From: a virus
Virus genome (UHGV): UHGV-0305822
Strand: one strand, 5' to 3'
DNA: 64,000 bases
The notes below the pieces were generated by a model, which had not been told where the DNA came from, searched no databases, and was given only the letters and a program-made list of their open reading frames with translations. A program made the translations under genes and the position numbers. Numbering within the stretch: position 1 is the stretch's first letter; every line of letters starts with the position of its first letter. Shown here piece by piece: positions 5,556 through 58,126 of this stretch.

Positions 5556-5557
5556 TT

Positions 5558-27459: not shown

Positions 27460-27759
27460 ATGCGTTATCAAACGGAGATTGTGGAACGCTTAAGTGAAGG
27501 ATTGGCAAGTGTTAATTTAGAAACAGCGGCCGAATTTCGTGAAGCCTTCACTCACCCGTTTCCCGATCTGGAATCCTTTTGTTTAAAGGTCGCTGAGTAT
27601 TACTCGAATCTATTAGTACGTTACGGGTATGCGCCAGTACGTTCCGAACTTCCTGAAAACACGGAAGCTATCAGCTACTGGATTGACCTGCTTGAAGCAG
27701 AAACGTTATCCAATTTACGTAAGGCGGTAGACAATGAAACTCGAACCAGCGCGGCGTAA
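27460..27759 (+). CDS. hypothetical protein
   Basis: 99-aa ORF; SD taaggag. Confidence 0.5.
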   Translation: MRYQTEIVERLSEGLASVNLETAAEFREAFTHPFPDLESFCLKVAEYYSNLLVRYGYAPVRSELPENTEAISYWIDLLEAETLSNLRKAVDNETRTSAA

Positions 27760-28402
27760 AAAGGCGGAAGCCTACGCCTTACAAATCTTAAAGTTGGTAG
27801 ACCCTTCTGGCATTAATGCCGAAGCCGCGAAGAAAGCCTTCGCACGAATGACCGACGAACAGTTTAACCGACTTCGTAACGGTTTGCCTATTTACAACCC
27901 GGTGGGAAGTAAAGTCGAAATTGACCACCTGCGCAATATCGAGGTGTGCAAAATTCTCGGGGTAAACCTGGAGCAACGACTCTGGTTAACAGAACCAAAA
28001 ACGGGTGTTTATCACCGTACTCGTTACCCTCACTTAGTCTTACGCTTGCCTGTCCGTCGTCAGACACAGATGCAAGAAAAGAAAATGGCGGTTGCGAAAA
28101 ACGACAAAGTTCGCGATAAGCTCTCCGGTCAAGTCGTCGGACCTTCCAAAGCATCCGGGGTGTCCTTCCCAGAGGCATACATCATGTACTCCGATGGTCA
28201 CGACTGGACACTGAAAGAGTTCTTGTGGGCGCGTGGTGGTAACGACGCACTACAACGTGCTTTCTATCAATCGCTGCGCCAAACCGGTAAAGGGCGTATT
28301 GATTTGCCTGGAGCGGAGCGAACAAGTTCTAAAGCAACGCGTACGTGGTCGGCGTACCTAAAAGCGATGCATATCGGTAACAACATAGGCCATCCGTCAT
28401 GA
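27734..28402 (+). CDS. hypothetical protein
   Basis: 222-aa ORF overlapping the upstream gene by 26 nt. Confidence 0.5.
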   Translation: MKLEPARRKKAEAYALQILKLVDPSGINAEAAKKAFARMTDEQFNRLRNGLPIYNPVGSKVEIDHLRNIEVCKILGVNLEQRLWLTEPKTGVYHRTRYPHLVLRLPVRRQTQMQEKKMAVAKNDKVRDKLSGQVVGPSKASGVSFPEAYIMYSDGHDWTLKEFLWARGGNDALQRAFYQSLRQTGKGRIDLPGAERTSSKATRTWSAYLKAMHIGNNIGHPS

Positions 28403-38945: not shown

Positions 38946-39000
38946 AGTACCTACCTCCTCTCGGAGGTAGGTAGACTTTCTTATTTTTTTTTCTTTTTTA
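38946..39000. terminator. bidirectional intrinsic terminator between convergent genes
   Basis: tacctacctcctctcggaggtaggtag hairpin followed by a long T-run on plus and A/T-rich flank on minus. Confidence 0.65.
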
Positions 39001-39561
39001 AGCGCCTGGAACAATCCCAGAAGAGATATACGTCAAACCGTCAAGTTCAGTGACTTTAATCAACTTCGAAATATCCTTACCGTCAGACGGCAGCTCTGTT
39101 AAGTACACCTCCAGCCGCCCTGTCCACGCCAAAGATGTCCCATTCATGGTAATGATGGTTTTATCTTTGCTGTCTGGTGCAGCTGTTGGATTCTCAACTT
39201 CGTCGTCAGTAATCTGTAAATTGTACTTATTGCGGAAAAGCTGTAGTACCTCAGATACCGTAGCCGCATTAACACCCGCAACAGAAACTACAAAGTCACC
39301 TAAGAGGTGCTCTAAATCCAAACGACGATAAATAACGTCAATTTTACCAAACGTTTTCTGTTCAATAATTCCCTGGACGCTAAGTTGGGTATTTAATCGC
39401 GTAAATTGGGTTTCTGGTGTTTCTACCGCAGGAATATGTGACGGTGTACCAAAATTCAACTTATCGATTGTAATACCTTTCTCTACCAAACCAGGATTCT
39501 TTTTTACTAATAACTCATAAACCAGTTGTTTTCCTGATTTACCTAATAGCGTATTAGCCAT
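38998..39561 (-). CDS. hypothetical protein (possibly virion-associated)
   Basis: 187-aa minus ORF in an operon with the large minus-strand genes. Confidence 0.6.
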   Translation of the reverse strand: MANTLLGKSGKQLVYELLVKKNPGLVEKGITIDKLNFGTPSHIPAVETPETQFTRLNTQLSVQGIIEQKTFGKIDVIYRRLDLEHLLGDFVVSVAGVNAATVSEVLQLFRNKYNLQITDDEVENPTAAPDSKDKTIITMNGTSLAWTGRLEVYLTELPSDGKDISKLIKVTELDGLTYISSGIVPGA

Positions 39562-39577
39562 TATTTCCTCTCAAACA

Positions 39578-41749: not shown

Positions 41750-41765
41750 GTTATACCTCTAAAAA

Positions 41766-41790
41766 ACGGGGGTAGTTTCCTACCCCCCTG
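41766..41790 (-). terminator. minus-strand hairpin with U-tract between the giant gene and the downstream gene
   Basis: gggggtag...ctaccccc stem; on the minus strand it is followed by gtttttt. Confidence 0.4.
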
Positions 41791-41796
41791 TTGTTA

Positions 41797-44700
41797 TTAC
41801 GCTGATTTACGACTAACGTCGAGTTGCGGCACGGGTTGAGTTATTGACACGTTACGTGACGCCGAACCCGGAGCGGTTGACGCCGGGTTAGCCGGACCGT
41901 TTTGCATAGCCTGTGGCCGCTGACGAAGAATTGTTACAATCTCTTTCAGATAGCCTGCAGACTCTTTTGCAACCGCCAGCTGTTGTACACTGATCGGATC
42001 ACCACTGTTCACTGTGGAACCGGTCTGAGCATCGGAAGTCACCGTTGGTGCAGGACGGGCCGATTTCTCCATCTGCTGTCTAGCACCCTCTTTTACTTTA
42101 GCAACCTCTTCTTCGGCCAGGCCGTCAGCACGTGCATTTTGACCCACCGTCTCTACAACAACTGACGCATCACTCGGCGTGACATCGCCACCAGGACTCG
42201 GCACAGCCGGACCACCACCCGTTGCAGCTTTAATATCTTCAGCACCCATCGCGCCTTTGTCTGCTAAAGCGGAGTCACGATTCGCTTCGTTCGCGGCTGG
42301 CAGGTTATCTGCCGGGCCTGTGATAGACGGATCGTTAGCAGCGCCTGCAGCGATAGCCGGGGAAGACGGCATTGGCGTTACGCCTGTCGTCAAGTCTTTC
42401 AGCGATGCCTGGTTAGCCGCGATCGCGTTTGTTCCTACGGCACCAATCTTACCACCCATGATGTTGAGCACTTCATCCAAACTACGCAATTTTCCATTCT
42501 TGTAGAAAATTGTGCTGTTTGCCGCGATTTGATCGGCCGACGCACCACGCGACGATGGGCCGTTCGGATCACGCTTCCATTCTTGCAGGAATTTCTTACC
42601 GCCACCTTGTCCTAAGAAGTGGTAGAGGTAAACAGCTGCACCTGGAGGATCGATACCACCTAAATCCTTTCTGGCTTTCTCGATATTATCACGAATATGA
42701 CGGACGCCAAGCAGAGCATTCGCCCACGGGTCATACTGGTTAGTTTGCGGGATACCATAACGTCTCGCATAAGCTTTCATCTGCGCACCCCAGGTATCGT
42801 TGATGAACTGGAACAAGCCAGCCGCAGAACTTCCTTTAGCTTTGATACCGTATCTAAGCCCAGATTCTGCTTGTGCCATTCCCAGTGCTAACGCTGGAGG
42901 AACACCCATCATCTTCGCTACGTCTGTAATCAGTGCTGCAACCGCATTCAAGTTAGGCTTCAATCCGTCACCCAACGTTGAAATTGGATACTTAGCCGCT
43001 AACGTTTTATAGTCACCGTCTTGCATATCGCCAAGTTTCACGCCGAAGTTACCGGTAGTAAATGCAGCGTAATTCTTAGCTCCCATCTGACCGTAAGCAC
43101 CGGCCAAATCGTTTGGTGTGCCGTAATTCCCACCGTCGTTTGCCGCTGGTTGCAATAGGTCACGATAAGAGGAGGAGGTGTTCATCTGTGGTCGAGACGG
43201 TTGCTCCTTCTCATCGTCGGTCAAGAACATCTGAGTCGCGCGATCTTTTCGCTGCCAGTTCACACGGAAACCCGCAGAAGGCGTAGCACGCAGCGTTTTA
43301 CGTACTGCCAAATCAGCTTCCTTAGACAGTTCTTTCAGGTTCTCTAACTCCGTTGCAACTGAACCGGCGTCGGTGTTAGCGTCTCCCCCTAACGGGTTAA
43401 ACGGTACCTCCCACACTGACTGACGAATACCCCCTTTCAGGTTGTATGCACCACGCATCATCAGTGCGATTTCATACAAGAACCCACCCGTAACGCGTAG
43501 GTCCATCGGATCGGCAGCAGGGACATAACGTTTCACCCCAACCACGTACGTCATGAAGACAGGTAAGAAGCGGTTATAGAACCAGTTCTTGTACCGATCT
43601 TCTTTTGGCCCACCAATGGCGTCAGGCGCAATCACCGCAATCGCACGTTTCCAGTCGCCTTTATACGTACAGCTTTTCACATCGGTGTCTTGCAACACTT
43701 GACGTTCCAAGAGCGTATATAGGTTACGGGTTGTTTGAGTAATGCTCACCGCACCATAAGCTTTCAACCTTACGGACTCCAAATCACGGAGATCGGTTTC
43801 TTTAGGTAAACTTCTCCAGTCGACTTGAACCTGAACTTGTTCGGTGCCGTCTTCCCAACCTTCAACTTTCGCAACTTCTTTGTTGCGTTCCGCATCCGCT
43901 TGAGCCAACGCTTGGGTCGATTCTGCCACAGAAGCAACTTTGTGTCCTTCGGCCACACCGCCTGTAGCATTTACATCCTTACGTTTTTCATCACGACGCA
44001 TGTTAATCGAACGAAGCACGCGTTCTTGCGCTTCAACGACTTCTTCGCCTGACAAAAACTCGGCCGGGGTAAACGTTACGAAATCCCACGCTTTAGAGAA
44101 CCAACCTTGGTTAACCTTGCGGGGATCTTCTAATGCACGGAATGCAGGCGCATCTTTCGACATCTTCATTTTGTTGAAGATATTCAACATGTCTGCCTTC
44201 GACACTTTCGCAGGATTACCGACATCTGCTAACGCGATATCATTATCCATGGATTTCAGTGCTGTAATCCAACGTAAATAGATCGGCACAAAACGTTGTA
44301 GCATAAACGCACTAAACGCCAGCATTTCGCCTTTGTCTTCTACGTTAGTACCAAACCCTTCGGCCAGTTTCTTCACGTCGTCACCGGACAAACCACGCAA
44401 CTGTGCTTGACCATTCTCTGTATAAGAGATATACGGTTTCAAGTTGTCTTCTAAATAACGTGCTTTTGCGCCATCATCGGAAGACCATTCGTCGTGATCT
44501 CTAAATCCGTACTGTGCCAATCGCATGTTATCCAGATACTGGGCATTCACACGGGTTGCAGTTTTATACGCAAACCAAGACAACGCAGCGCCTGCAGCAA
44601 CCAAACCGATAATCGGCCAGCCAACCGCAGTTACCACTGCAGATGCTGCCGTCGCGACAGCACTCACCGCAGGAACAGCCAAACGGGTCACAGCAAACTT

Positions 44701-47700
44701 ACCAACGTTCCACAACGCTTTACCTGCAAACCCAACCGGCTTAAAGATTCCCCATTTTGCGACTTTACCTAAGATTGAACCCACTGTGCCTAAAATACTC
44801 ACAATCGGCCCTACCAACGGCAGTCCTTTAAGGAAATCCATTACCCCACGTTTACCGCCTTTCTTCTCAGCCTCTTTCTTAGCCTTTTCCTCTTCCTTAG
44901 AGCGACGACGGCGTCGGAAGAACTGGAAGTAATCGCGTTTTTCATCACTGGCAGGTGGCTTGTTACGTTGACCGAACTTACTGAACATGGTTCTTAACAA
45001 ACCATCCGAAGCACCTGCTTTTTCCGCAGAATCACGCATGGTATTAAACCACGACATTTCCTGAAGATTAACCATTCGGTTCAGGCGTTCCAGTAAAGCC
45101 GACCCAACGCTACGGGCTTTCTGTTTCCCTTTATTAATCACACGTCCAGCGCTATCCGTTACGGTGTCTAAGTCTTCTTTTGCCGCATCGATGATACGTG
45201 TTTTAGACACCTTGCCTCTTGCGTAGATGTGTTGACGATAAAACTCAGCAACGTCGTCATCGCGTCCTGCTAAACGACTCTCCATTCGATAACGTGTTCC
45301 AATGTCGTAACGCGGATCACGGAAGGTATCGACCATATCGCTTGCACGACCACGGAAACGGTCAAACCAATCACGTGCTGCACCACCCCAACGAGAAAGA
45401 CGACCACCTACCGCACTACGGTAACGGGACATTCTGTCACGCATCCGACCACGCCAATCCCGGAACCCTTGAAAATGTTCACGGAATCCTTCGCGTATGT
45501 CCTTAGCACGTTGGAATAATCCTTTAACTGAACTGGCCCCCGTATTCCGCTCCATCTGTTCTGTCCAGGTGTCATCTTCAGGTTCACCTGGCAATCTCCG
45601 GTTAAGGAGTTTGTAGATACGGATTAGGATGTGGTTAGTTTTACGGCCATTCGACCACGAGAACACACTAAACCCACCACCAGAGCCCCCTTCCTTACGG
45701 TTCTGCCACCAACGTGTCAACGGATTATCAGAAGCCAACTCTTTGAGCTTCTCAAACCCACGTTTTGCATTGTTCCACAGACGAGCTGGCATTCCCGTTA
45801 CACGGGAAATCATGCTTTGTAAACGGGTTTTCTCTGCGCCCTCTGGAACCTCATTTAACCACTCGCGTGCTTTCTCGAACAACGAAGCCGCTTTAGGCGA
45901 AATGAAACCCAGAAGTTTCTTCGGTAAAGTCACAGCTTTGTTTACCGCCGTTCCTGCCTTCCCAGAAATGTACTGGAAAAGCGCTTGAACTTTACCGCCT
46001 TTGTAGAAACGCAGTTTACCTGCGGCAGCCAAATCAGCAGCAGCTAAGATTAAATTACCCGCCTCGTCGACGATGTCACGTCCCAGTTTAATATCGTCGA
46101 GAGTTTTAAGTTGAATCAGCTTCTCAGTTTTCGGGTCAGCCTGGTAATATTCCCCAGCTTCTAAACGACTTCCTTGTAATACGACGTTACCACGTTCATC
46201 GTAGATGTCGCGAACACCTAAAACGCCTTTACCGAAAGCTACAGCAGAATTCCAACCGGTCGATAATGTACCGGTTACTAACCCTTTCAGTCGGCTAAAT
46301 ACGCCGGGACCTTCGGAGGAACCGCCTGAGAATTTCCCACGAATAAAACCACCTAATGCTTGTAGGCGATCTTTCCCACGTAGGAACAGATTCTTACCAA
46401 ACCGTCCTACACCTGAACCGGTATCCCAAAGCACCCCAGCCCAGCGACGTAACAAACCTGTCTCGCCTAGTACAATACGTTTGCGCTTACGACGACGTTT
46501 ACGACCCGATTCACTCGAACTTTCAGGTTCGTCACCGTCATCACGGCTACCGCCTAAACTGGCCAGAAGAATACCTTCCTCATCCATGTTCTTAACGTGT
46601 TTGAGGATATCTTGCACTGTGCTAGATTCAGGCTGTTTACGTACCGCATCAATCAAACGATCGAATTGCTGCTCCAGTCCAGCGTTCGTATCTGGACGGC
46701 TGCTTAAGAGCTCAACAAAGTTGGTGGATTTCTCTCCATAAAGTACAGCAGCGAGTTGACGGGCGCTTAAACCGCGACCGCGACCACCTTTTCCACCACC
46801 ACGTACGTTAGACAGTTCTTTGTCTTCAAAGCTCGGCTCTGCACCTGCACCCATCCGACGCAAGTAATCACCCAACGCAGAACCATTTTGCAGCTTACGT
46901 TGAATCTCTTGCTCACGGGTTAACGAACGACCAGAGCGGGTCTTACCCATCGACAGGTCGTTAAATAGCGTATAGGGATCGTTAATGTCCTTATCGACTT
47001 CGAAAATGTCGTTCTTCGCATCGTATTTAAAAATGCCGGAGTCGCGAAGTGCGTTCTCGCCGTAAATCACAGACGCAGCATCAACCGTGTCTTGACGTGC
47101 ACGAATCGTTGACTGGATAGCGGCGATTTTGTTTGAAATCGCGTTGCTCAGTTCATGGTGACCGCCAACCAGTTCCGCAGAACGGGCTTCTAAAACACCC
47201 TGAATCGCTTCCACAGCGTTTGCGTTCATGTACCGATACATGTGCATCGGGTCTTTCAATAAAGACCCTACATCGAACGCTTTCCCTTCTGAGGCACGAG
47301 ACTCGATGTAGTCCGCTAACGCTTGACGTGTTTTCCTATCGAGCGTTTTATCTTTATCGATAAAGTCGACAGTGTCGTTGATGTACGTCTGTAAACGTTT
47401 GCGCTGATCGTCATTAGCAACGGCCTTACGTACACGATTACCAATGACTTTACGATCCACCATACCGCGCGTGGTCAGGTCATAAACCTGATCGTGGTGT
47501 TCGCCATACCCACGACGAATAGATTTGTTAATCTCGGACAGTAACGTCGGAATAACTTCGGTGATACTAAGGTAAGCTTTACGATCGAATTTCGCCGCGG
47601 CAGAAAGAGATTCCGCAGAACGATCGTCTAATGCTAAGGTTTCGCGACGTAGCGGGTTAACTAGCCCCAATTCGTGCATTAGTCGAAACAGATCAGCTAA

Positions 47701-48921
47701 CGGACCGCTTGTTTCTCCCGCTATTGCCGAGTTAGAAATAGACGACAGATTTCCAAAGCCATACTTCGCCAACTGTAGGCGTTTCATGACTTCTGGGTTT
47801 TTCTCTAACTCGCCACGGGTCCAGTTCTGAAGACGTTCGATCTGTGGTTGTAAGAGACGTTTTGCTAACCAACCACCTGCAAAACCTGCCGCTTTATTAC
47901 GCGAGTTTGTGTTACGACGGTCAGGAGACAACGATGAGCTGTCCGACATGTCAAAGTCATCTTCCTGAGCCATCCCTAGAACTTGTTCTAGAATCCCACG
48001 ACCATCACTAAAGATGTTCGAGATTTTCTTCTTCGCGTTTTCGCGAATCTGACCAATGAAATTGTCTGCGTAGTGTAAGGGGTTCATCCACTCCGCAGCT
48101 TTACGTTTTACATTAGCCCAACGAATTTCAGAAAACTCTTCCTTCGCGTAGTCCGGTAGTGCTGTGTTCTTAACGATGGCTTCTAATGCCGGGGTGTTGC
48201 GTGCAAACTCGTCTTGTTTGAGTTTCGCAATATCCTGCAAAGCGAACAATGTCCGATATTGCAGCTCTAACTGCTTACGCTGAACATTCAACAACACGCC
48301 ACGACTTAAGCTAGTCGTTAAGTTGACGTCTTTCGCAATACCGATTACGGTCTGGAACAGCGCGTCGGACTTCATGTCCTTAATCGTGTCGCGCAAGCGG
48401 TCTTCAACCATCCCCTCTTGCATCTCACGTTGCTGGTCCGCTGTTTGCGGTGCACCTGAGAACACGCTGTCCAGCTCACGATCCATCATCGCCTGTTTAG
48501 GATCGTAATTCCCATAGTCGATTTGATCGTTACGTGCCCACTTGTCGATTTTCCGTGTTACGGATTCCGGTAAATACCGTTTCAGTGTTGGGCCTAACTG
48601 TCTCGCTTGCATCTTAACGACGCGAGACGTCTTTTCAATCTCGTCTTTCGTATGGGCCAGAATGTCTTGACCTGCGGCTTTAACGTTTTGATAGCCTTCG
48701 TAGGCTTCTGCCGCAGGTTTAGGCATCCCTTTTAAAATAACCTGATCACGTTTGTTTTCGGGCCAGATAGTCGACAACGCCGACTTACGGGCAGCACGAA
48801 ATGTGTCCATGACCGGGTTACGCGATTGGTCTTGTTGACGAGGGGGCTCATCAAAATCGTCCCAGTCGTCCATGTTATCAAGATCGATTTCATCGAAATC
48901 ATCTTTACCTTTTTTAGCCAT
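41797..48921 (-). CDS. giant virion-type protein (2374 aa) with C-terminal-region SLT lytic transglycosylase domain
   Basis: SLT motifs ...LGMAQAESGLRYG...AAGLFQFINDTWG... encoded at about 42560..42930; internal hydrophobic cluster; poly-basic tracts (SGRKRRRKRKR, FRRRRRSKEEEKAKKEAEKKGGKRG); size and domain order as I recall for phiKZ gp181-type proteins. Confidence 0.8.
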   Translation of the reverse strand: MAKKGKDDFDEIDLDNMDDWDDFDEPPRQQDQSRNPVMDTFRAARKSALSTIWPENKRDQVILKGMPKPAAEAYEGYQNVKAAGQDILAHTKDEIEKTSRVVKMQARQLGPTLKRYLPESVTRKIDKWARNDQIDYGNYDPKQAMMDRELDSVFSGAPQTADQQREMQEGMVEDRLRDTIKDMKSDALFQTVIGIAKDVNLTTSLSRGVLLNVQRKQLELQYRTLFALQDIAKLKQDEFARNTPALEAIVKNTALPDYAKEEFSEIRWANVKRKAAEWMNPLHYADNFIGQIRENAKKKISNIFSDGRGILEQVLGMAQEDDFDMSDSSSLSPDRRNTNSRNKAAGFAGGWLAKRLLQPQIERLQNWTRGELEKNPEVMKRLQLAKYGFGNLSSISNSAIAGETSGPLADLFRLMHELGLVNPLRRETLALDDRSAESLSAAAKFDRKAYLSITEVIPTLLSEINKSIRRGYGEHHDQVYDLTTRGMVDRKVIGNRVRKAVANDDQRKRLQTYINDTVDFIDKDKTLDRKTRQALADYIESRASEGKAFDVGSLLKDPMHMYRYMNANAVEAIQGVLEARSAELVGGHHELSNAISNKIAAIQSTIRARQDTVDAASVIYGENALRDSGIFKYDAKNDIFEVDKDINDPYTLFNDLSMGKTRSGRSLTREQEIQRKLQNGSALGDYLRRMGAGAEPSFEDKELSNVRGGGKGGRGRGLSARQLAAVLYGEKSTNFVELLSSRPDTNAGLEQQFDRLIDAVRKQPESSTVQDILKHVKNMDEEGILLASLGGSRDDGDEPESSSESGRKRRRKRKRIVLGETGLLRRWAGVLWDTGSGVGRFGKNLFLRGKDRLQALGGFIRGKFSGGSSEGPGVFSRLKGLVTGTLSTGWNSAVAFGKGVLGVRDIYDERGNVVLQGSRLEAGEYYQADPKTEKLIQLKTLDDIKLGRDIVDEAGNLILAAADLAAAGKLRFYKGGKVQALFQYISGKAGTAVNKAVTLPKKLLGFISPKAASLFEKAREWLNEVPEGAEKTRLQSMISRVTGMPARLWNNAKRGFEKLKELASDNPLTRWWQNRKEGGSGGGFSVFSWSNGRKTNHILIRIYKLLNRRLPGEPEDDTWTEQMERNTGASSVKGLFQRAKDIREGFREHFQGFRDWRGRMRDRMSRYRSAVGGRLSRWGGAARDWFDRFRGRASDMVDTFRDPRYDIGTRYRMESRLAGRDDDVAEFYRQHIYARGKVSKTRIIDAAKEDLDTVTDSAGRVINKGKQKARSVGSALLERLNRMVNLQEMSWFNTMRDSAEKAGASDGLLRTMFSKFGQRNKPPASDEKRDYFQFFRRRRRSKEEEKAKKEAEKKGGKRGVMDFLKGLPLVGPIVSILGTVGSILGKVAKWGIFKPVGFAGKALWNVGKFAVTRLAVPAVSAVATAASAVVTAVGWPIIGLVAAGAALSWFAYKTATRVNAQYLDNMRLAQYGFRDHDEWSSDDGAKARYLEDNLKPYISYTENGQAQLRGLSGDDVKKLAEGFGTNVEDKGEMLAFSAFMLQRFVPIYLRWITALKSMDNDIALADVGNPAKVSKADMLNIFNKMKMSKDAPAFRALEDPRKVNQGWFSKAWDFVTFTPAEFLSGEEVVEAQERVLRSINMRRDEKRKDVNATGGVAEGHKVASVAESTQALAQADAERNKEVAKVEGWEDGTEQVQVQVDWRSLPKETDLRDLESVRLKAYGAVSITQTTRNLYTLLERQVLQDTDVKSCTYKGDWKRAIAVIAPDAIGGPKEDRYKNWFYNRFLPVFMTYVVGVKRYVPAADPMDLRVTGGFLYEIALMMRGAYNLKGGIRQSVWEVPFNPLGGDANTDAGSVATELENLKELSKEADLAVRKTLRATPSAGFRVNWQRKDRATQMFLTDDEKEQPSRPQMNTSSSYRDLLQPAANDGGNYGTPNDLAGAYGQMGAKNYAAFTTGNFGVKLGDMQDGDYKTLAAKYPISTLGDGLKPNLNAVAALITDVAKMMGVPPALALGMAQAESGLRYGIKAKGSSAAGLFQFINDTWGAQMKAYARRYGIPQTNQYDPWANALLGVRHIRDNIEKARKDLGGIDPPGAAVYLYHFLGQGGGKKFLQEWKRDPNGPSSRGASADQIAANSTIFYKNGKLRSLDEVLNIMGGKIGAVGTNAIAANQASLKDLTTGVTPMPSSPAIAAGAANDPSITGPADNLPAANEANRDSALADKGAMGAEDIKAATGGGPAVPSPGGDVTPSDASVVVETVGQNARADGLAEEEVAKVKEGARQQMEKSARPAPTVTSDAQTGSTVNSGDPISVQQLAVAKESAGYLKEIVTILRQRPQAMQNGPANPASTAPGSASRNVSITQPVPQLDVSRKSA

Positions 48922-48950
48922 AACGTTTAATCCGTATCAGGAGATTTAGC

Positions 48951-50570
48951 GTGAATAAACTTAATTGGGTTGACTTTTATCTGCTCAATGTAAACAAGTC
49001 TCTTGTGTCGCGATTACGACCCGTCACGACCACGGATACTTTCCAGGGGTTAACAAAAAACTTTCACCCCGAAGGTCTTTACTCTACAGAGATATTTGGA
49101 CTCACGGGGAGTGAAGCGCGAGACTCTACTTTCTCTTATATCGATATTAAACTCGATATCATTTCGCCGACGGTGTGTTTGGCGTTATTCCAACTCAAAC
49201 AACTCTACGAAGAAATTTGTTCTGGAAAACGCTACGCAACGTGGAGCGAAAAAGAAAAAGATTTCGAACCGGCCTTGCCGGGAGACCCAGGCGCAGATAC
49301 CGGTTTTAACTTCTTCCTCAGTCACTATAACGATTTAAAACCTAAGCGTAACGAGTCCCTACAACGTGACGAAACCGTGGATTTCTTTTTGAAATTCCGT
49401 CCCGTTAGTCTTAGTCGATACGTTCTCGTGTTACCCGCGGGTTTACGCGATTTAGTAATTCGACAAGATGGTAGAGAACAGGAAGAAGAAATCGGCGGGA
49501 TGTATCGTCGGTTGGTATCACTCGCCAGGGCGATCCCTGACCGAGCAACCCGTGTTGAATTAACTAACCCCGTACGCTGGAAGCTGCAACAAACCTTCAA
49601 CGATATCTGGATGTATTTCTTTAACATCCAAGACGGTAAAGGGGGTTTCCAACGTCGTAAAGTGACGTCTCGTAAATTAATGAACGGGACACGTAACGTA
49701 CTGTCCTCGTTCTCGACGGGGTCTAAGTGCATGGGTCGTGAAGACGCTATTCGTCCCACCGACACCAAAATTGGTTTATACCAGGGTTTAAAAGCATTAC
49801 TCCCCGTTGCGCAATACCAGATACGTGAACGTTACCTCGGTAACATCCGTGCTGGTGACGGCAACCTTTACGGCGTAAACACCAAAACCCTTAAACGTGA
49901 ATTCTTGGAAGTAGGTGGTCGTGTATACGACACCTTTACCACCGACGATGGGATTGAATCCTTAATCAACCGAATGGAAGCTCGCGAGCTTCGCCATCAG
50001 CCGATTATGTTGGACGACACCCACTACGTTGCGTTGGTTTACCAAGACACCAAACATTTTAAGGTGTTCTACGATATTGAAGAACTTCCTAAAACGTTTG
50101 ACCGAAAATTCGTTCACGGTATGACGCTCGTCGAATTGCTTTATTTGTCGGGCTACGAACTTTGGAACGATTATTTCGGTTTCGTTACACGTTATCCCGT
50201 TACAGGCCGAGGCTCGACGTATTCATCGACCATAAGATTGGAGACCACCACATCATCTTTATACTTAAAAGAACTGGAAGATGACTGGGAAACTGAAAAA
50301 CCCCGAGGGGCTATCAGCTACCCTGACCGGTCGGTTCCTACCTTCGTTGAGTCTATGGCACCACACCCCTCACGTCTAGGTGGCTTAGGGGGTGACTACG
50401 ACGGCGATACCGGGTCGTTTAACGCGCCCATGTCCCAGGAAGCGCTCGAGGAAAACCGGAATTGGATACACTCGAAAAACTACTGGTTCGATTCTGATGG
50501 GAACTTTAAAATCAATCCTATCAACAACGTGATTAAACGTGCAACGCAAGCGTTATTAAAGAACCCATAA
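48951..50570 (+). CDS. multisubunit RNA polymerase beta-prime-like subunit, N-terminal half including catalytic site (phage split RNAP)
   Basis: FHPEGLYSTEIFG resembles beta-prime KPERDGLFCARIFGP; VLVLPAGLRDLV resembles LPVLPPDLRPLV; GKGGFQRRKV resembles GKQGRFRQNL; DYDGD at 50394..50408 resembles NADFDGD; GTG start after aggag. Confidence 0.7.
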   Translation: MNKLNWVDFYLLNVNKSLVSRLRPVTTTDTFQGLTKNFHPEGLYSTEIFGLTGSEARDSTFSYIDIKLDIISPTVCLALFQLKQLYEEICSGKRYATWSEKEKDFEPALPGDPGADTGFNFFLSHYNDLKPKRNESLQRDETVDFFLKFRPVSLSRYVLVLPAGLRDLVIRQDGREQEEEIGGMYRRLVSLARAIPDRATRVELTNPVRWKLQQTFNDIWMYFFNIQDGKGGFQRRKVTSRKLMNGTRNVLSSFSTGSKCMGREDAIRPTDTKIGLYQGLKALLPVAQYQIRERYLGNIRAGDGNLYGVNTKTLKREFLEVGGRVYDTFTTDDGIESLINRMEARELRHQPIMLDDTHYVALVYQDTKHFKVFYDIEELPKTFDRKFVHGMTLVELLYLSGYELWNDYFGFVTRYPVTGRGSTYSSTIRLETTTSSLYLKELEDDWETEKPRGAISYPDRSVPTFVESMAPHPSRLGGLGGDYDGDTGSFNAPMSQEALEENRNWIHSKNYWFDSDGNFKINPINNVIKRATQALLKNP

Positions 50571-50579
50571 GGCTAAGCA

Positions 50580-53500
50580 ATGCTGCTCATTAAACAGTTT
50601 AACCAACGCTTCTCGGTGCGTAAAACTGACGAGTTTGGTAATCCGAGGATTATCCCGCTCGAGAAGCTACAGATACCACGTGGTTCTGTACTCCATGTCA
50701 TTGATCTCGACCAGGTGGTATTAGCGCCACCTGCAACACTCGAGATTATTCAACCGTTAGAAAAACCTGCACAGGTTCGTCACCACTTTAAATTACCGGA
50801 AGACGGTATTAGCGGCCATCCGCGCAACAAACCTGTTCAGGGCCAAGAACGTGCTATCTTTGCCTACCACCGTGCAAACCGCCCGATGCGTCGTCTTACC
50901 TCAGACGATCTGGTTCGCAAAGACTTAAAAGTTCTCCTGGTCGAGAACTACACACCAATGCTATCGCACTACTACTATCCTGACACCCAGTTAGCCTGGT
51001 ACGATAGACTGCGTAACATCCAACTGTTGATGATTAACCAGTTCAAATACGACACGCAAGAATACATGCGTCAGAACTATTTCGTTATTGAACTGGGTTC
51101 GACTCTACCTTCGTTCCAGAAGTTTCAAACAACCTATAACGACCGCGTTAAGAGCAAGATTGAGAAGTTCCAGGACTTCAACTTGCTGTGGCTATTGGAG
51201 TTGTTTGCTTGGGCTTATGGAAAACAATCCGATTCCTTATTCTCGGGAATGGATTTAACTCAGCTGTCACGAATGAACTTTATCTTCACCCACAACACGG
51301 GCTTTACGTCCATGAACATGGGTGTTGTAGAGAAAATGCGTAAGTCGTCCGGCGGTCGTTTAAGTGACGACCAAATGGCCAGGATGTTCTACCGTACGCT
51401 GGTGCGTGTAATGACACAAGCACCGTCTAACGCGTACGAAGCGGAATTCCTAACGCCTGAAGGTGACGAGCGTGTTTTCCTTAAAGACGTCGAAGAAGAA
51501 ACCGTTGATGTTGTCGACGATGACGATGTTGTTAATGACGCTGTGGTGGAATCCGATAACACCTTCGATGAAAAAGAAGACGTTGTTATTGAAGAACCGA
51601 AGGAAGACGTCAAACCGACGACCATCGTCGTCGAGAAAGTCATTCCGCACGACGAGATTATTAAACAGGAAGCACAACGCTTAGCTGAAGCGGGCCGCTT
51701 AAGTTCTAAAGCATATCAGTTCCTGTCAGAATCGTCTAAACGTTTCGTTCAGCTGCCTAACCCGTATAACCCGAAAGAAACCTACGGGGAAGCACTGACT
51801 GTTCACGAGAAAGATATCGTCGTTAAGGCCGAACCGAAAAAAGTTCAGCGGCTTGTTACCGATGAAGGGTGGGCAGAGAACGTCACCGACCAAATGGTGA
51901 AACAATACAACCAGACCATGATGACCAAAGACGTACTGGCGGCGGTCGCCAGTTCACAACGTTTGGGTCTGGCGGTTCACAACCACACGGTGGAAAAAGA
52001 AGTTTCTGTTACAGGAACTATCGAGCACCACACTTTACGTGTTCAGCCAGTCGGTGGTGAGCCAACAACAGTTCGCTTCTCTATCCCGGGCTTGACCGAG
52101 GACGGTACTTGGGTCGCTAATGGTGTCGAATACACCATGCGTCGCCAACGTGTGGACTTACCGATTCGTAAGGTTGCACCGGATACTGTCGCACTGACTA
52201 CCGCCTACGGTAAAAACTTTGTCCGTCGTAGTGATAAGGTCGCGAACGATTACGGTCGTTGGTTAACCAACGCGATTATCACACGCGCCGTTGACCCGAC
52301 AAACACCGAAGTCACCGATGCACGTTTAGCAAATGTGTTCGATCCTACGCAACATCTGCCTCGTCAGTATACGGAGATTGCACGTCGTATTGCCAGCTTT
52401 AATGCGAACGGCTATATGTGGAACTTCGACTACAAAGAAACCGTTAACTTCTTTAACGACGAGCAACTCAGAGACGCCGATGCTGCCAAACTTCTGCCAG
52501 TGGCGAAACGTCCGCGTAGTGAAACAATCCTGGCAATGGATGACAAATCCATGCTTTACGGTGTAAAAGGAAACAAAGTTGAACCGGTGGGGACTATCGC
52601 AGAGGTACTGGGCTTTAATAACCAGAAAGTGCCTCGCGAAATGACCGAGCTGTCTTTGATGGGTAAATCTTTGTCGCTTGGTTTTATCTTCTCGTTCTAT
52701 CTTGGACTCCAGGGAATGTTGAAACATTTCGGTATCCAGTACGAGTTGGTTCCTACAGGACAGCGTGTTGATAAGAATGCCTACGACAGTATTATTCGAC
52801 TACAAGACTGTAAACTTTTAGTTACTTGCGATAACGATCAGCAGAGGATGATTCTGCATGGTTTGGATCGCTATCTCAAACACCTGGTTGCTTATACCGA
52901 ATCAGAAGCAGACCGAGAAGACATTTACCTGAACTTATTACGTGAAGCAGATGGCCTAACACCACGGTACATCAACGAGCTGAAACAGATGCGGTCCGCG
53001 TTTGTTGACGACATGCACGCACGTATCCTCAGGAAAATGGGTGAGCCGGAAACCTTTATTGGCTTGCTGGAACGTTCTAACGAACTGTTACAAACCGACC
53101 ACTCTTTACCAGAGATTAACGGCGATGAAATGATGTTCTTAGGAAATCAGAGGATTGCCTACCACATCTATACTGCGATGGTCAGAGCGATGCGTAACTA
53201 CAATAACGCACCGGGCAGTAACCGTAAGTTCGAACTGACGCAAGACATGGTTTGGGGTGCTATTAACTCCGACCCGTCGGTACTTTTGGCACCAGGCGCT
53301 AACCCTATCCAGTCAATTAAAGAAAAAGACGTTATTACGATGGGGGGTACAGGTGGTCGTAATCGTAAAACGATGGTCTACCACACGCGTGAGTTCCAAC
53401 CCAGTGATATCGGGATAGTCTCGGGTAACACCGTAGATAACGGCGACGTAGGGATTACTGCTTTCGTCACCAATAACCCACGTTTTGACACCGTTGACGG

Positions 53501-54746
53501 TACTACGTTTAAGCGTGAAGAGAAAACCCCGAAACCGAGCGATACCCTTTCGTTTATTGACGGGTTAGTACCCGATACGTTAATGGACGATGCAAAACGT
53601 CAAAACTTCGTTGGGATTCAGTTAGGTTCTGCCACCAGTTGTAATGGGGCAACCACAACCCCGTATCGTACTGAACAGGAGAAATTCGTCGCTCACCGTA
53701 CTTCGGTGAAACATGCACGCGTTATTGATAAAGCAGGTAAGATTACTGGTCTGTCGAAAGACCACATTGAAATTACGTACGAAGATGGAAGTAAAGAAGC
53801 CTTTCCTCTAGGGCGCTGGTTCGGCCCCCACGAAGGTACCTTCTATCCGCACACCTTGGTAACACGCTGGAAAGCCGGTGACAAGCTCCCGGCCGGAGCA
53901 GTGATTACGTACAACGAGCAACACTTTGAACCTGATATTTACGATCCTACTCAGGTTTCCTGGAAAAACGGGGTGCTGGCCACCGTTGCTTTATTAGAAG
54001 CTGAAGAAGTTATCGAAGACTCCAACGCAATTTCTGAACGGTTCGCGAAGAAAATGGTGGGGCAGGTAACAAAGCTGAAAGAAGTGACGATTAACAGCAA
54101 CCAGATGCTTTTGGAAATCGTGAATGAGGGCGACCACGTAGACGTCGATACAATCCTATGCACGTTTACTGACGACTTGACGGGCGATATGAGTGCCTTT
54201 AGTCAGGAAGCAGCCGCAACGTTGCAAAGTTTAAGTTCGTACGCACCTCGTGCAGGGGTACGTGGTATCGTGGATAAAATCGAAGTGGTGTATCACGGTG
54301 AAACCGAAGACATGACGCCAAGCCTTGCTGAACTGGTGCGTAAATACGACAGAATTCGTCGTAAAGCCGCACTGGCAGTCGGACGCGGTGATCCGGTTTC
54401 AGGCAGTGTAAACGGCGACTACCGTGTCGAAGGTGTACCCTTGGCCTTTAACTCACTTTGTGTTCGATTCTTTATTACACACGACGTTGAGATGGCCGCT
54501 GCGGATAAGATGGTTATTGCTAACCAGCTAAAAACCACCGTACAAGAAGTCATGTACGGGGATAACAAAACAGAGGATGGTGATGACCTGGACGTGTTGT
54601 TCGGTCGTGATTCCGTCGATGCGCGTATCGTAGGTTCAATCCAACGTATCGGTACCGCGAATGCTGTAGGTGAACAAGCCGGGATTCTCATCGGGCGTAT
54701 ACTCGATGGGGAGGCTGTGCCTGATTTACCCGCGACACTTAAATAA
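50580..54746 (+). CDS. large protein, probable second RNAP subunit (beta-prime C-terminal-like or beta-like; unassigned)
   Basis: 1388-aa ORF immediately downstream of the beta-prime-N-like gene; DIGIVSGNTVDNGDVGITAF weakly resembles the beta-prime segment [22 protein letters not shown]; acidic insertion at about 51490..51630. Confidence 0.45.
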   Translation: MLLIKQFNQRFSVRKTDEFGNPRIIPLEKLQIPRGSVLHVIDLDQVVLAPPATLEIIQPLEKPAQVRHHFKLPEDGISGHPRNKPVQGQERAIFAYHRANRPMRRLTSDDLVRKDLKVLLVENYTPMLSHYYYPDTQLAWYDRLRNIQLLMINQFKYDTQEYMRQNYFVIELGSTLPSFQKFQTTYNDRVKSKIEKFQDFNLLWLLELFAWAYGKQSDSLFSGMDLTQLSRMNFIFTHNTGFTSMNMGVVEKMRKSSGGRLSDDQMARMFYRTLVRVMTQAPSNAYEAEFLTPEGDERVFLKDVEEETVDVVDDDDVVNDAVVESDNTFDEKEDVVIEEPKEDVKPTTIVVEKVIPHDEIIKQEAQRLAEAGRLSSKAYQFLSESSKRFVQLPNPYNPKETYGEALTVHEKDIVVKAEPKKVQRLVTDEGWAENVTDQMVKQYNQTMMTKDVLAAVASSQRLGLAVHNHTVEKEVSVTGTIEHHTLRVQPVGGEPTTVRFSIPGLTEDGTWVANGVEYTMRRQRVDLPIRKVAPDTVALTTAYGKNFVRRSDKVANDYGRWLTNAIITRAVDPTNTEVTDARLANVFDPTQHLPRQYTEIARRIASFNANGYMWNFDYKETVNFFNDEQLRDADAAKLLPVAKRPRSETILAMDDKSMLYGVKGNKVEPVGTIAEVLGFNNQKVPREMTELSLMGKSLSLGFIFSFYLGLQGMLKHFGIQYELVPTGQRVDKNAYDSIIRLQDCKLLVTCDNDQQRMILHGLDRYLKHLVAYTESEADREDIYLNLLREADGLTPRYINELKQMRSAFVDDMHARILRKMGEPETFIGLLERSNELLQTDHSLPEINGDEMMFLGNQRIAYHIYTAMVRAMRNYNNAPGSNRKFELTQDMVWGAINSDPSVLLAPGANPIQSIKEKDVITMGGTGGRNRKTMVYHTREFQPSDIGIVSGNTVDNGDVGITAFVTNNPRFDTVDGTTFKREEKTPKPSDTLSFIDGLVPDTLMDDAKRQNFVGIQLGSATSCNGATTTPYRTEQEKFVAHRTSVKHARVIDKAGKITGLSKDHIEITYEDGSKEAFPLGRWFGPHEGTFYPHTLVTRWKAGDKLPAGAVITYNEQHFEPDIYDPTQVSWKNGVLATVALLEAEEVIEDSNAISERFAKKMVGQVTKLKEVTINSNQMLLEIVNEGDHVDVDTILCTFTDDLTGDMSAFSQEAAATLQSLSSYAPRAGVRGIVDKIEVVYHGETEDMTPSLAELVRKYDRIRRKAALAVGRGDPVSGSVNGDYRVEGVPLAFNSLCVRFFITHDVEMAAADKMVIANQLKTTVQEVMYGDNKTEDGDDLDVLFGRDSVDARIVGSIQRIGTANAVGEQAGILIGRILDGEAVPDLPATLK

Positions 54747-54753
54747 TCTCGAG

Positions 54754-54772
54754 GGGTGGGTCGCTCCCACCC
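54754..54772 (+). other. intergenic stem-loop
   Basis: gggtgggtcgctcccaccc hairpin after stop 54746; weak U-tract. Confidence 0.3.
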
Positions 54773-54793
54773 TTGTAAACTCCGGAGAAGAGA

Positions 54794-55087
54794 ATGTCTA
54801 TTCTAGATAAAATCAAACAGCGGCACGGTATTCCGACTGGGAAAAATATTACCCAGCAAAACGTGGAGGGATACAGTCCCATTCAACGTACCAACTACGT
54901 GTCTTTAGGTAATACTGTCGAATTAGCAACGGAGATTGTGCATGGTCTGATTCGCGGTAACTCAGGAATGTCTGACCGTATCGGTGATCAGAAACTGCTG
55001 AAACGTGATATCGCAGATCTGGTGGGCGCGCGTTTGTACGCGATGCTTCAGGCGAACATCAGCACGAATAAAGAGGTTAAACAATGA
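54794..55087 (+). CDS. hypothetical protein
   Basis: 97-aa ORF; SD ccggagaagag. Confidence 0.5.
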   Translation: MSILDKIKQRHGIPTGKNITQQNVEGYSPIQRTNYVSLGNTVELATEIVHGLIRGNSGMSDRIGDQKLLKRDIADLVGARLYAMLQANISTNKEVKQ

Positions 55088-56544
55088 TCAGTTTATACTC
55101 GCTGAATGCGGTTACTAACGCCATGAAACTGTGCAAACAGCATAATGTTCAGCTTGGCACAGACGTTGACTCTCCGGTTGATTTGCTCAACCGTGCGGTC
55201 GACCCTACCCGCGTTTTCGATACCACAATCACCGACGAACAGTTCTTCCAGGAACTGCCCGCGATTACGCAGCTTAAACGTCCGGTAGACGGTACGGCAG
55301 AAGCTTCGATTATTCGTGACGGCGCTGTTGAAGTTGAAGCACTGCGTGTTGACGATCATGAAACCACGTTATTCGAACTGAAGAACATGGCCATTCAGCG
55401 TTGCAACGGGATGCTGGATTTTGCCCGTAACGTTGTTCAACCGTTTGTGCAGCTGGTTATCCAAAATAACACGATTGAAGATGTCAAACCGTTGGTTGAA
55501 GACTGGAACCTGATTCCGGTAGGTATCGATCCGTGTGTGGATTCCCCAGTTGTCCAGGCGCTGATTCAAGAAATCGCCAACCCGATGGGCAACGGTACGA
55601 CTTACGACCCGATCAAGTTCGATGTACCGACCGACATCGAGATTCCGGAAACAGGTGTAAAAGCGTATGATGAACTGGTACGTAAATTACTGAACGACCT
55701 GAATCTCAGCATGTACGATGCAGCAAAACTTCTGCTGGCAGGTAACTACACCGTACCTGTTGCAGATAAAGCACCGGAGATGGTAAAAGAACGTGTTCTG
55801 GTACTGCTGTTGTCTTCGTTCTTCATTGAACGTCCGTGGCCTGACTCAGGTGTTGACGCCCTGAAATGGAAAGCGGAAATGGGTCGTGCCTATTACACGT
55901 CTATCGGTTGGGTATACGGTTTCGAAAAAGCGGTGGCTAACCGTGTCGCCACAGGTAACATCGTTTACTCTTACGATACCAACGAGAAAAACGTCTATAT
56001 CTGTCAGGAAACGATGGATGACTACCTGGAAAAAGGTGGTATCGTTGAAGCCCTGTTGGGTGCCATTTACCTGATGGACGAAGGCGACTATAACGTTTCC
56101 GCACGCGTGGCGTCTCTGCTGGAAAACCAGAAAGCCTACGTTGAAGCTTACAATCGTCGTGCAATTATCGTTCAGAAACGAAATGAACTCGACTGGGTAA
56201 GTCGTAACCGTCAGGCACTGAAAACAGCGTTCTCGATTGCAATCGACCAGCTCGACCAGGGCTACCTGACTGTTGGCGAGCTGACGCGCACTCGCGAAGA
56301 AGTCAAACAGGTTGTTATGGGGATTTGTGATGATTTCTTCGTCAACGCAGACGAAGACATTACGTTGTTTATCATCCGGACTGCATGTAACGCCGTATTC
56401 TGCGCCTACGAAATTGATCCGCTGATGCGTGCGATTCATACCGCGATGATTGAGAACACCGATCCGGCAGAAGCCGCAACCAGTTGGATGATTGACTATG
56501 TACTGAACTGGATTGCAGGTTCAGTATTCGTCGATAAACTTTAA
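55084..56544 (+). CDS. hypothetical protein
   Basis: 486-aa ORF with ATGA overlap. Confidence 0.6.
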   Translation: MISLYSLNAVTNAMKLCKQHNVQLGTDVDSPVDLLNRAVDPTRVFDTTITDEQFFQELPAITQLKRPVDGTAEASIIRDGAVEVEALRVDDHETTLFELKNMAIQRCNGMLDFARNVVQPFVQLVIQNNTIEDVKPLVEDWNLIPVGIDPCVDSPVVQALIQEIANPMGNGTTYDPIKFDVPTDIEIPETGVKAYDELVRKLLNDLNLSMYDAAKLLLAGNYTVPVADKAPEMVKERVLVLLLSSFFIERPWPDSGVDALKWKAEMGRAYYTSIGWVYGFEKAVANRVATGNIVYSYDTNEKNVYICQETMDDYLEKGGIVEALLGAIYLMDEGDYNVSARVASLLENQKAYVEAYNRRAIIVQKRNELDWVSRNRQALKTAFSIAIDQLDQGYLTVGELTRTREEVKQVVMGICDDFFVNADEDITLFIIRTACNAVFCAYEIDPLMRAIHTAMIENTDPAEAATSWMIDYVLNWIAGSVFVDKL

Positions 56545-56562
56545 CGCGCTTAGGAGGTGATC

Positions 56563-57291
56563 GTGAGTGCGATTGAAACAGCCCGTCGTGACCCTACTAA
56601 GGTTCATGCGGACTTGGTAAATAACGGCACGGTCACCACTACCAAAGGGGGATGTTACATTTACATCCCCGTTGGGTTTGTGGCGAAAGAGTTGGCGGTT
56701 ATTTCTTCTACGGTAACAATTGTAGGGATCTTTGCGATTTCTACCGACCGTAAAACATATGGGGTGTCCAGCGTTACAACGCTTATGGAGATTACCCCAA
56801 CGGCGTTTGAAGAGATCGACGTCTTTGGTGTTCCTTATTACGAATTTCGTTTTGATCCCGGTACAGTGGTTTTCCCCAACCGCAATTTACAGGTGTTGTC
56901 TCACCCTATTTACAACATTGCGTCGTATATTTACGACTTTGGTAATCGTCCTTTCTGGTTTACTGCAGCGGATGATGCTGAACTCTTGGCACCTGATAAA
57001 GTCAAGAAATGGAACGGTTTTACTGTATTTGCCGATCAGATTACCGCTGACGTTTACGCAGCACACACGCAGCGTAAAGTAGGTGATCCGAGAACGTTCT
57101 TCCGTTACACGCTGAAGAAAGATAGCGATCTTAACAACCCTGTGCAGTTTATTCCATTGCGCAGTGGTTCACTTAACAAAACGTCGAGACTGGCGAAACT
57201 TGCAGACGTAGAACTTAAACGTGGTATTCGTTCTGCGCTACAGGTTGACCCAGTGCGTGCCGAACCGCTCGAAGATTTGTTTATGAGGTAA
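56563..57291 (+). CDS. hypothetical protein
   Basis: GTG 56563 after taggaggtgatc; the track start at 56557 is too close to the SD. Confidence 0.55.
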   Translation: MSAIETARRDPTKVHADLVNNGTVTTTKGGCYIYIPVGFVAKELAVISSTVTIVGIFAISTDRKTYGVSSVTTLMEITPTAFEEIDVFGVPYYEFRFDPGTVVFPNRNLQVLSHPIYNIASYIYDFGNRPFWFTAADDAELLAPDKVKKWNGFTVFADQITADVYAAHTQRKVGDPRTFFRYTLKKDSDLNNPVQFIPLRSGSLNKTSRLAKLADVELKRGIRSALQVDPVRAEPLEDLFMR

Positions 57292-57322
57292 CCTTACCTT
57301 TTACTTTTACTCGGGGAAAACA

Positions 57323-58126
57323 ATGGACAATTTAACACTGCGTTACAACTGCGTAGCGTTAGCCGGTGTTAACGCTCCAGCCACACTGGAGAAAGACGCG
57401 GATGGCTATTACCGCGTACTATTGGGTGCTTTGAATATCTTTAACTCGGAAGGGATTTTTTACGCCTATAACGAGTCTAAGCACGTATTCGAACGCTCGA
57501 ATATCTTTATGCGTAAAGTGAAAGCAGGGAATCTGTTCGGGGAAGAAGATCACCCGGCACCAGAACCCGGTATGACCGAAGCGCAATGGATTGATCGCAA
57601 CGAATGGATTGAGACGAAAAACGTCTGTATGCACATTCGTGAAGTTGAAGTGATTCCAACCGACCAAACCTGTAACGGGTTGCCGGTTATGGAAATCTGG
57701 GGCTGGATTAAGCCGAACCGCGAACGTGGCCCGTACTTGGCAGAAGCGCTCGAAAACCCACACCAGAATGTATGTTTCTCTCTGCGTGCAATCGTACGTG
57801 AAGGTTATGTAGGTGGTGTGAAAACACGTCGCCTGGATCGCCTGGTAACGTTTGACTGGGTTATCGAGGACGGGTTGCAGATTTGTAACAAATACTCTGC
57901 GATTCAACGCGGTAGTAAGGTGGCTCAAGAATCCACACGCGTTCTGCTGGACCGTCGCGTCTCCCTCCAGGCGCTGGAGGACATTCTGCGAAATCCTAAC
58001 ACTACGTCTACCATCGCGACAGAATCTCGTCGTGGTGAAGTTCGTGCGTTAGCGCAGGAGTACCTGGCCATCGCTAATAAGAAAACTAACCTGCGTGTTA
58101 TGGGTTTAGGTAACGGGAAGTGGTAA
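57323..58126 (+). CDS. hypothetical protein
   Basis: 267-aa ORF; SD ggggaaaacaATG. Confidence 0.6.
   Translation: MDNLTLRYNCVALAGVNAPATLEKDADGYYRVLLGALNIFNSEGIFYAYNESKHVFERSNIFMRKVKAGNLFGEEDHPAPEPGMTEAQWIDRNEWIETKNVCMHIREVEVIPTDQTCNGLPVMEIWGWIKPNRERGPYLAEALENPHQNVCFSLRAIVREGYVGGVKTRRLDRLVTFDWVIEDGLQICNKYSAIQRGSKVAQESTRVLLDRRVSLQALEDILRNPNTTSTIATESRRGEVRALAQEYLAIANKKTNLRVMGLGNGKW

Follow-up and report, generated by a model that had tools for sequence, protein, structure and literature searches.

Which polymerase, if any, is encoded where a short gene with beta-prime-like motifs lies back to back with a giant gene for a lytic transglycosylase protein? This question is raised by positions 41797-54746 of a 64,000-nucleotide stretch (64 kb, the window hereafter) of the virus genome UHGV-0305822. 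An initial annotation had placed three open reading frames (ORFs) here, and all of them are in the ORF list: 48951..50570 (plus strand, 539 aa), 50580..54746 (plus strand, 1388 aa) and 41797..48921 (minus strand, 2374 aa). The region is almost certainly the conserved head/tail gene block of a Chimalliviridae jumbo phage (phiKZ-like, of the SPN3US/phiEaH2 clade), carrying split genes for its virion RNA polymerase (vRNAP). This RNA polymerase (RNAP) is a bacterial-type two-barrel enzyme whose beta and beta-prime subunits are divided into five polypeptides, and four of the five are encoded in the window: the beta-prime N-terminal subunit (beta-prime-N, 48951-50570), the beta N-terminal subunit (beta-N, 50580-54746), the beta C-terminal subunit (beta-C, 27734-28402) and a candidate beta-prime C-terminal subunit (beta-prime-C, 56557-57291). 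For this phage the demonstration is computational and consists of homology, fold, motif conservation and synteny. A bacterial chromosome was also considered as the source of the region, and that reading was rejected.

The two RNA polymerase genes at the centre of the locus

The gene at 48951..50570 (plus strand) encodes a 539-aa, 62-kDa protein, the ortholog of SPN3US gp240 and phiKZ gp180. It begins with a GTG start codon; AGGAG lies 8 nt upstream of it, and homologs line up with this start at their N-termini. Beta-prime landmarks in the right order had been claimed for this ORF, and all four were found: FHPEGLYSTEIFG at aa 38, VLVLPAGLRDLV at aa 158, GKGGFQRRKV at aa 229 and DYDGD at aa 482-486. 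The last (50394..50408, plus strand) is the catalytic Mg-binding triad, the counterpart of NADFDGD, and the ORF does end shortly past it, with 53 residues remaining. Over 32 homologs D482 is invariant and D484 and D486 are each conserved in at least 90%, while the Tyr in place of Phe occurs throughout the SPN3US/phiEaH2 clade and also in the non-virion RNAP (nvRNAP) of AR9. PHROG 2986 ('RNA polymerase beta subunit', 539 positions) covers the protein end to end (E = 7e-234), and its aa identity is 85-86% with the phiEaH2 and SPN3US-like proteins and 32% with phiKZ gp180.

Searches with the single sequence leave some room for the view that chance produced the motif matches and that the 539-aa fold is unrelated to beta-prime, since Pfam returned no match for beta-prime-N and phmmer against the PDB reached only a non-significant E of 0.4; a family profile was needed. 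Homologs numbered 1023 at E<=1e-3, and a profile built from 24 aligned sequences (32-96% identity) was run against all PDB sequences. It matched the AR9 nvRNAP beta-prime N-terminal subunit (7s00/7s01, E ~2e-13), plastid and cyanobacterial beta-prime/gamma (3e-9 to 2e-8) and bacterial beta-prime (1e-7 to 4e-6), with each motif on its canonical counterpart: VLVLPAGLRDLV is paired with LPVLPPELRP and GKGGFQRRKV with GKxGRFRxxLLGKRV (beta-prime about 312-430), and the DYDGD loop is placed on Escherichia coli beta-prime 446-507. In hhalign against E. coli RpoC, aa 140-252 aligned with beta-prime 218-356 (probability 88%, E = 3e-6). An AlphaFold2 (AF2) model of the protein (pLDDT 79.8) retrieved 566 PDB chains at E<=1e-3 with Foldseek, and the top 50 were all RNAP beta-prime (probability 1.00, AR9 first), at TM-scores of ~0.3. 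Neither a lack of beta-prime profile matches nor a placement of the motifs in an unrelated fold was thus found for 48951..50570, the two checks suggested beforehand, by profile and by predicted structure, agree, and on the profile, Foldseek and RpoC results we reject coincidence, to which we attach a negligible chance. The 539-aa protein is a beta-prime N-terminal fragment, corresponding roughly to E. coli beta-prime 60 to 515. Its N-terminus shows no Zn-binding Cys cluster.

Downstream, at 50580..54746 (plus strand), lies the gene of a 1388-aa, 157-kDa protein, the ortholog of SPN3US gp241 and phiKZ gp178. It starts 9 nt past the beta-prime-N stop codon, a gap that suggests co-transcription and coupled translation of the two genes. 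PHROG 3148 matches the protein (E = 0), and it shares 31% identity with phiKZ gp178 over the full length (pairwise E = 0). The initial annotation had offered either the C-terminal part of beta-prime or beta as its identity. Pfam gave nothing for this ORF and single-sequence PDB searches were non-significant; a profile of 19 sequences found Thermus thermophilus beta in the PDB (E = 2.5e-8), with four collinear blocks on the 1119-residue subunit (aa 508-524 on 117-133, 910-976 on 396-463, 986-1095 on 531-638 and 1299-1388 on 822-914). In hhalign against E. coli RpoB, aa 906-1350 aligned with beta 517-1107 (E = 0.0097, at low probability and with a single-sequence template). By the beta profile and the RpoB alignment, the second of the two proposed identities holds and the first falls away: the ORF is beta, covering roughly 80% of the subunit (T. 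thermophilus ~117-914) behind a phage-specific N-terminal region, and not the remainder of beta-prime. It is not a complete single-chain beta, as it stops at about E. coli beta 1107, without the last roughly 200 residues; beta is divided in this manner in all phiKZ-like phages. The exact beta-N sequence has no record in public assemblies.

The phage-specific region of beta-N spans aa 1 to about 500 (50580..52079, plus strand). A structure model of aa 1-510 contains a confident alpha/beta domain (aa 1-290), a disordered acidic linker (aa 291-353) and then a helical and beta-sheet region reaching to the first beta motif. Neither the ~500-aa region nor the confidently predicted ~290-residue domain within it has a structural relative in the PDB. 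The N-terminal domain of SPN3US gp241 was proposed to target the pre-assembled enzyme into the prohead (PMC5105663), and in 201phi2-1 the equivalent 275 residues are cleaved off as a propeptide, whereas SPN3US is without such processing (PMC5694885); the 201phi2-1 cleavage site falls at the domain boundary of our model. We tentatively raise the possibility, in our view on the unlikely side, that the ~290-residue domain (50580-51449) is a new fold acting as a built-in signal that loads the pre-assembled polymerase into the prohead, perhaps also chaperoning its unfolding and ejection.

Interruptions of both genes were seen in a relative from the JGI metagenome 3300035493. There, beta-prime-N halts at '...ELGAD' inside the catalytic motif and the frame resumes with 'FDGDTGSG'; between the two parts (region 5440-5905) lies a group I intron match (RF00028, 5453-5839, 32 bits, E = 3.5e-6) that is below the gathering score of 50. 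The beta-N ORF of the same relative is also broken directly after the conserved 'HDD' motif (~9165). Many 479-aa beta-prime-N homologs end at the same point as the copy in this relative; the genes of the window are uninterrupted.

The remaining subunits and the assignment to the virion enzyme

The claim that the polymerase is encoded in pieces is borne out by the beta-prime and beta fragments described above and by further pieces at separate loci. The first, beta-C, lies at 27734..28402 (plus strand), outside the coordinates covered by the initial annotation, and is a 222-aa protein with an isoelectric point of 10.1. It matches PHROG 3233 ('RNA polymerase beta subunit', E = 6e-93) and is the ortholog of SPN3US gp218, an essential virion vRNAP subunit (PMC5694885); its match to E. 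coli beta (1160-1310) resumes close to the end of beta-N. The second, at 56557..57291 (plus strand), is the candidate beta-prime-C, a 244-aa ortholog of SPN3US gp244 and phiKZ gp176 (PHROG 2926, E = 5e-91; 31% identity to phiKZ gp176, E = 6e-33). It belongs to a broad family with 427 cluster representatives, all of about 240 aa. The beta-prime-C role of SPN3US gp244 was derived from amber-mutant proteomics, genetics and a marginal HHpred E of 0.05 (PMC5105663, PMC5694885). For the fifth piece, the subunit beta-prime-M, tblastn with SPN3US gp42 gave no match in the 64-kb window, which is expected, since the SPN3US gp42 gene is far from the vRNAP block.

Chimalliviridae phages have two such enzymes, and both are split beta/beta-prime homologs. 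The two central ORFs might therefore belong to the nvRNAP, which is made after infection and active inside the phage nucleus, and the best PDB match of beta-prime-N is indeed the AR9 nvRNAP subunit (7s00/7s01). This ranking is explained by the fact that no vRNAP structure was among the matches in any PDB search. The window proteins share 77-86% full-length identity with their SPN3US and phiEaH2 orthologs, and mass spectrometry placed SPN3US gp240 and gp241 among the proteins of the virion head (PMC5105663, PMC5694885). The genes stand in the head block near the prohead protease, as phiKZ gp180 and gp178 do; the ~500-aa extension of beta-N is shared, over its full length, with the vRNAP subunit phiKZ gp178; and the SPN3US nvRNAP subunits found no tblastn match in the window. 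We therefore reject an nvRNAP identity as very improbable, on orthology to virion subunits, head-block position and the lack of an nvRNAP tblastn match, and assign the genes to the vRNAP.

Several points weigh against this assignment or parts of it. The TM-scores of the beta-prime-N model are low and its global superposition is poor, as expected for an isolated multi-domain fragment. The hhalign match of beta-C to E. coli RpoB is weak (aa 35-184 on beta 1160-1310, E = 4e-4, probability 35%), and a hidden Markov model search of the PDB with beta-C returned no RNAP. Likewise, a profile of the 244-aa family (67 sequences) found no beta-prime in the PDB, and hhalign of the protein against E. coli RpoC detected no similarity (E = 0.37). 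Packaging and host-independent transcription are carried over to this phage from its orthologs, sequence being what we have here, and with 64 kb of the genome in view, the presence of beta-prime-M, of an nvRNAP set and of chimallin and a genome of jumbo size would be expected from the relatives. There is no evidence that contradicts the assignment of the vRNAP locus.

What such an enzyme would do is suggested by work on the orthologs. In SPN3US, gp240, gp241, gp218, gp42 and gp244 belong to the head, are essential and depend on one another to be packaged, and loss of gp241, gp218 or gp244 alone strips heads of all five subunits (PMC5105663, PMC5694885). The phiKZ virion holds ~10 copies of the vRNAP, which is kept out of the phage nucleus (PMC10612078), and all five subunits were found in Goslar virions (10.64898/2026.04.21.720040). 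Ejection into the early-infection vesicle and early transcription without host RNAP, including that of the nvRNAP genes, have been reviewed (PMC13282480). By analogy, the five vRNAP pieces of our phage would be expressed from middle or late genes and assembled late in infection, and the complex would be loaded into the prohead, with the N-terminal domain of beta-N possibly targeting it to the head. On entry the SLT domain of the giant protein would cut peptidoglycan, and its hydrophobic segments may help form a conduit through the envelope; the vRNAP would then pass, together with the ejected DNA, into the early-infection vesicle and there transcribe early genes, among them those of the nvRNAP, without host RNAP, sigma or alpha.

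Transcription signals around the locus were also inspected. Between 41000 and 58500, sigma70-like promoter matches are depleted (9 versus 17.1+-3.8 expected), a weak signal, and terminator-like sites number 12 versus 19.3+-4.9 expected; such a slight shortage would fit transcription by phage polymerases. The giant gene and beta-prime-N are separated by a divergent intergenic spacer of 29 bp (48922..48950), which holds the AGGAG ribosome-binding site of beta-prime-N and is too short for two promoters, so that promoters would have to lie inside coding sequence or further upstream. Together with the 9-nt gap between the two RNAP genes, the spacer and the promoter depletion are weakly consistent with the proposed vRNAP mechanism. 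A phiKZ-type early-promoter word, TATATTAC, gave 1 match versus 1.9 expected and is uninformative.

The giant SLT-domain protein and neighbouring genes

The minus-strand gene at 41797..48921 encodes a 2374-aa, 262-kDa virion protein homologous to phiKZ gp181 and SPN3US gp239. It matches PHROG 3201 (E = 0) and PHROG 4067 (transglycosylase, 3e-27), and BLASTP against phiKZ gp181 gave two matches (E = 2e-34 and 3e-17), which together take in N- and C-terminal parts; phiEaH2 gp159 is its ortholog at the same position. A C-terminal SLT domain had been predicted. The SLT lytic transglycosylase domain is present at aa 1999-2085 (42667..42927, minus strand; Pfam PF01464, 29.9 bits against a cut-off of 21.3) and aligns to the SLT region of phiKZ gp181, with the catalytic Glu2019 within AQAES (from aa 2016). 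It lies near the C-terminus and not at its very end, since ~290 low-complexity residues follow. Two hydrophobic, transmembrane-like segments lie at aa 1366-1387 and 1414-1451 (44569..44826, minus strand; Kyte-Doolittle, 19-residue window, >=1.6), for which a membrane role may be envisaged.

Database records favour another function, a tail fiber, as PHROG 3201 and the phiEaH2 and phiKZ RefSeq records all say 'tail fiber protein'. Yet the phiKZ record itself also says 'tail-associated endolysin', and an SLT domain with an intact Glu, hydrophobic stretches and extended low-complexity or coiled parts typically mark tape measure or ejection proteins rather than receptor-binding fibers. SPN3US gp239, which was detected in virions, was named the tail tape measure protein (PMC5694885), and phiKZ gp181, which has muralytic activity (Briers 2008, as cited in PMC5380687), was assigned to the cell-puncturing device (PMC5380687). 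The giant protein would accordingly be, by analogy with these orthologs, a virion-associated peptidoglycan hydrolase inside the tail, either a tape measure or part of the cell-puncturing device; a tail fiber is improbable, though less so than the two RNAP alternatives above, and the label 'tail fiber protein' is probably a misnomer.

A putative intrinsic terminator follows the giant gene, 10 nt beyond its stop codon (41768..41787, minus strand), with a perfect 8-bp stem containing 6 GC pairs and a GTTTTTT tail. Elsewhere in the window, 11038-11763 (plus strand) encodes a separate SLT transglycosylase of 241 aa whose N-terminus is hydrophobic and signal-like (PHROG 4067, E = 6e-47); its identity to the giant protein's SLT domain is 28%. 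Judged by its sequence, it is probably the lysis enzyme, and the phage would then have two muralytic genes with this fold.

Two further genes of the head block follow the RNAP genes on the plus strand. The 486-aa product of 55084..56544 (PHROG 3841, E = 2e-131) is, by position and synteny, the head or ejection protein orthologous to SPN3US gp243, which is required for head assembly (PMC5694885), and to phiKZ gp177. At 57323..58126, the last gene of the conserved block encodes the prohead maturation protease of the phiKZ gp175/SPN3US gp245 family (PHROG 3014, E = 1e-104; synteny), whose ortholog in the nearest public contig has a Peptidase_S80 domain. Gene order from 38998 to 58126 is the same as in phiEaH2 gp157-165 and in that contig (220.6 kb), and matches phiKZ gp182-175 (gp181, 180, 179, 178, 177.1, 177, 176, 175) save for the extra gp179 of phiKZ. 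The likeness to the phiKZ layout that the initial annotation had pointed out is therefore real, with a gp181 homolog divergent from the vRNAP genes as in phiKZ.

Some other features of the window were recorded. A 187-aa virion structural protein (38998-39561, minus strand; PHROG 2935) has an ortholog with Pfam DUF7941 in the nearest public contig; according to a 2026 preprint on Goslar, proteins of this family form long filaments around the virion (10.64898/2026.04.21.720040). Tandem paralog pairs occur at 22852-23778 and 23785-24702 (PHROG 6160) and at 32-829 and 897-1670, the latter having C-termini in common that match PHROG 26772. The C-terminal end of a tail sheath gene at 63547-63987 (minus strand; PHROG 3242 positions 546-689 of 692) is cut by the window edge. 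The whole window contains no tRNA genes and no Rfam family at gathering score.

Relatives and comparison with known systems

The signature of a phiKZ-like jumbo phage, which the initial annotation had read from the locus, is matched by the closest relatives, Chimalliviridae jumbo phages of 220-250 kb. Nucleotide identity is ~75% to phiEaH2, Stratton, Asesino and SPN3US-like phages; with the nearest public contig, GCA_044615825.1 (220.6 kb, from a Salmonella dataset), it reaches 81%. The proteins are 94-96% identical to those of the clade of this contig and 77-86% identical to those of phiEaH2 and SPN3US-like phages, phiEaH2 gp160/161 showing 75% nucleotide and 85% aa identity to their counterparts. 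Seoulvirus and Erskinevirus are both in Chimalliviridae. Window positions 1-25000 are essentially without a megablast match in 50,697 phage records, the sole exception being 63 nt at 2284-2346; the proteins of this part nevertheless match PHROG families that are usual in the clade (SbcC, RNase H, exonuclease and virion proteins). Going by these sequence comparisons, the phage is an uncatalogued species, perhaps an uncatalogued genus, within the well-studied SPN3US/phiEaH2 clade.

A split, packaged vRNAP is already known as a defining and experimentally characterised trait of Chimalliviridae, and only the phage itself is new. The find therefore adds a new species-level genome and no new mechanism. 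The locus identifies a Chimalliviridae jumbo phage as the source of the window and gives a function to ~14 kb of it. In annotation, the 1388-aa gene becomes the N-terminal piece of vRNAP beta rather than beta-prime, and the 222-aa and 244-aa genes become further vRNAP subunits, the latter as a candidate.

Compared with cellular enzymes, the phage RNAP is only about 12-14% identical to its bacterial, plastid and cyanobacterial counterparts. Beta-prime-N nevertheless shares with cellular beta-prime the collinear motifs LPVLPPxLRP, GKxGRFR and NADFDGD, and beta-N shares with cellular beta the collinear motifs NPxxxxxxK...GxGG, DDxxR and GDKxxxxxxxKG; these are motifs of the catalytic double-psi beta-barrels. 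Beta-prime is naturally split in cyanobacteria and plastids too, but the split in the window, at about E. coli residue 515, is earlier than the cyanobacterial one. Unlike E. coli RpoB, beta is split at about E. coli residues 1110-1160 and carries the N-terminal region of ~500 aa, and unlike cellular beta-prime, beta-prime-N has no visible Zn-binding Cys cluster. The RNAP family of Chimalliviridae is without alpha, omega or sigma homologs (PMC13282480), and this trait, the divergence, the division into five pieces, the beta-N extension and the lack of visible Zn-finger Cys residues are all family traits already described.

The nvRNAPs of AR9 and phiKZ (PDB 7s00, 7s01; PMC8287921) have the same split-subunit layout, and AR9 beta-prime-N, the best match among solved structures, has DYDGD as well. 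Unlike the vRNAP of the window, they are a paralogous set that is not packaged, with a fifth subunit for promoter recognition and without the long N-terminal extension of beta-N (structures in PMC8287921).

Among packaged enzymes, that of phiKZ is alike in its genes, with a divergent giant SLT protein followed by beta-prime-N (gp180), beta-N (gp178), a small ORF, a ~500-aa protein, the 242-aa gp176 and the protease gp175, and homology is full-length, the N-terminal extension of beta-N included. Identity is only 25-32%, however, phiKZ has DFDGD where the window clade has DYDGD, and the extra phiKZ gene gp179 (357 aa) and ~500 bp lie between gp180 and gp178, in place of a gap of 9 nt. The closest counterparts are those of SPN3US (gp239, gp240, gp241, gp218, gp244, gp245) and phiEaH2 (gp159-165). 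Nucleotide identity to them is only ~75%, and no functional difference was detected: gene order and orientation are the same, protein lengths are near-identical (537-539, 1388-1401, 222 and 240-244 aa) at 77-86% aa identity, DYDGD is common to the clade and the 29-bp divergent spacer recurs in phiEaH2.

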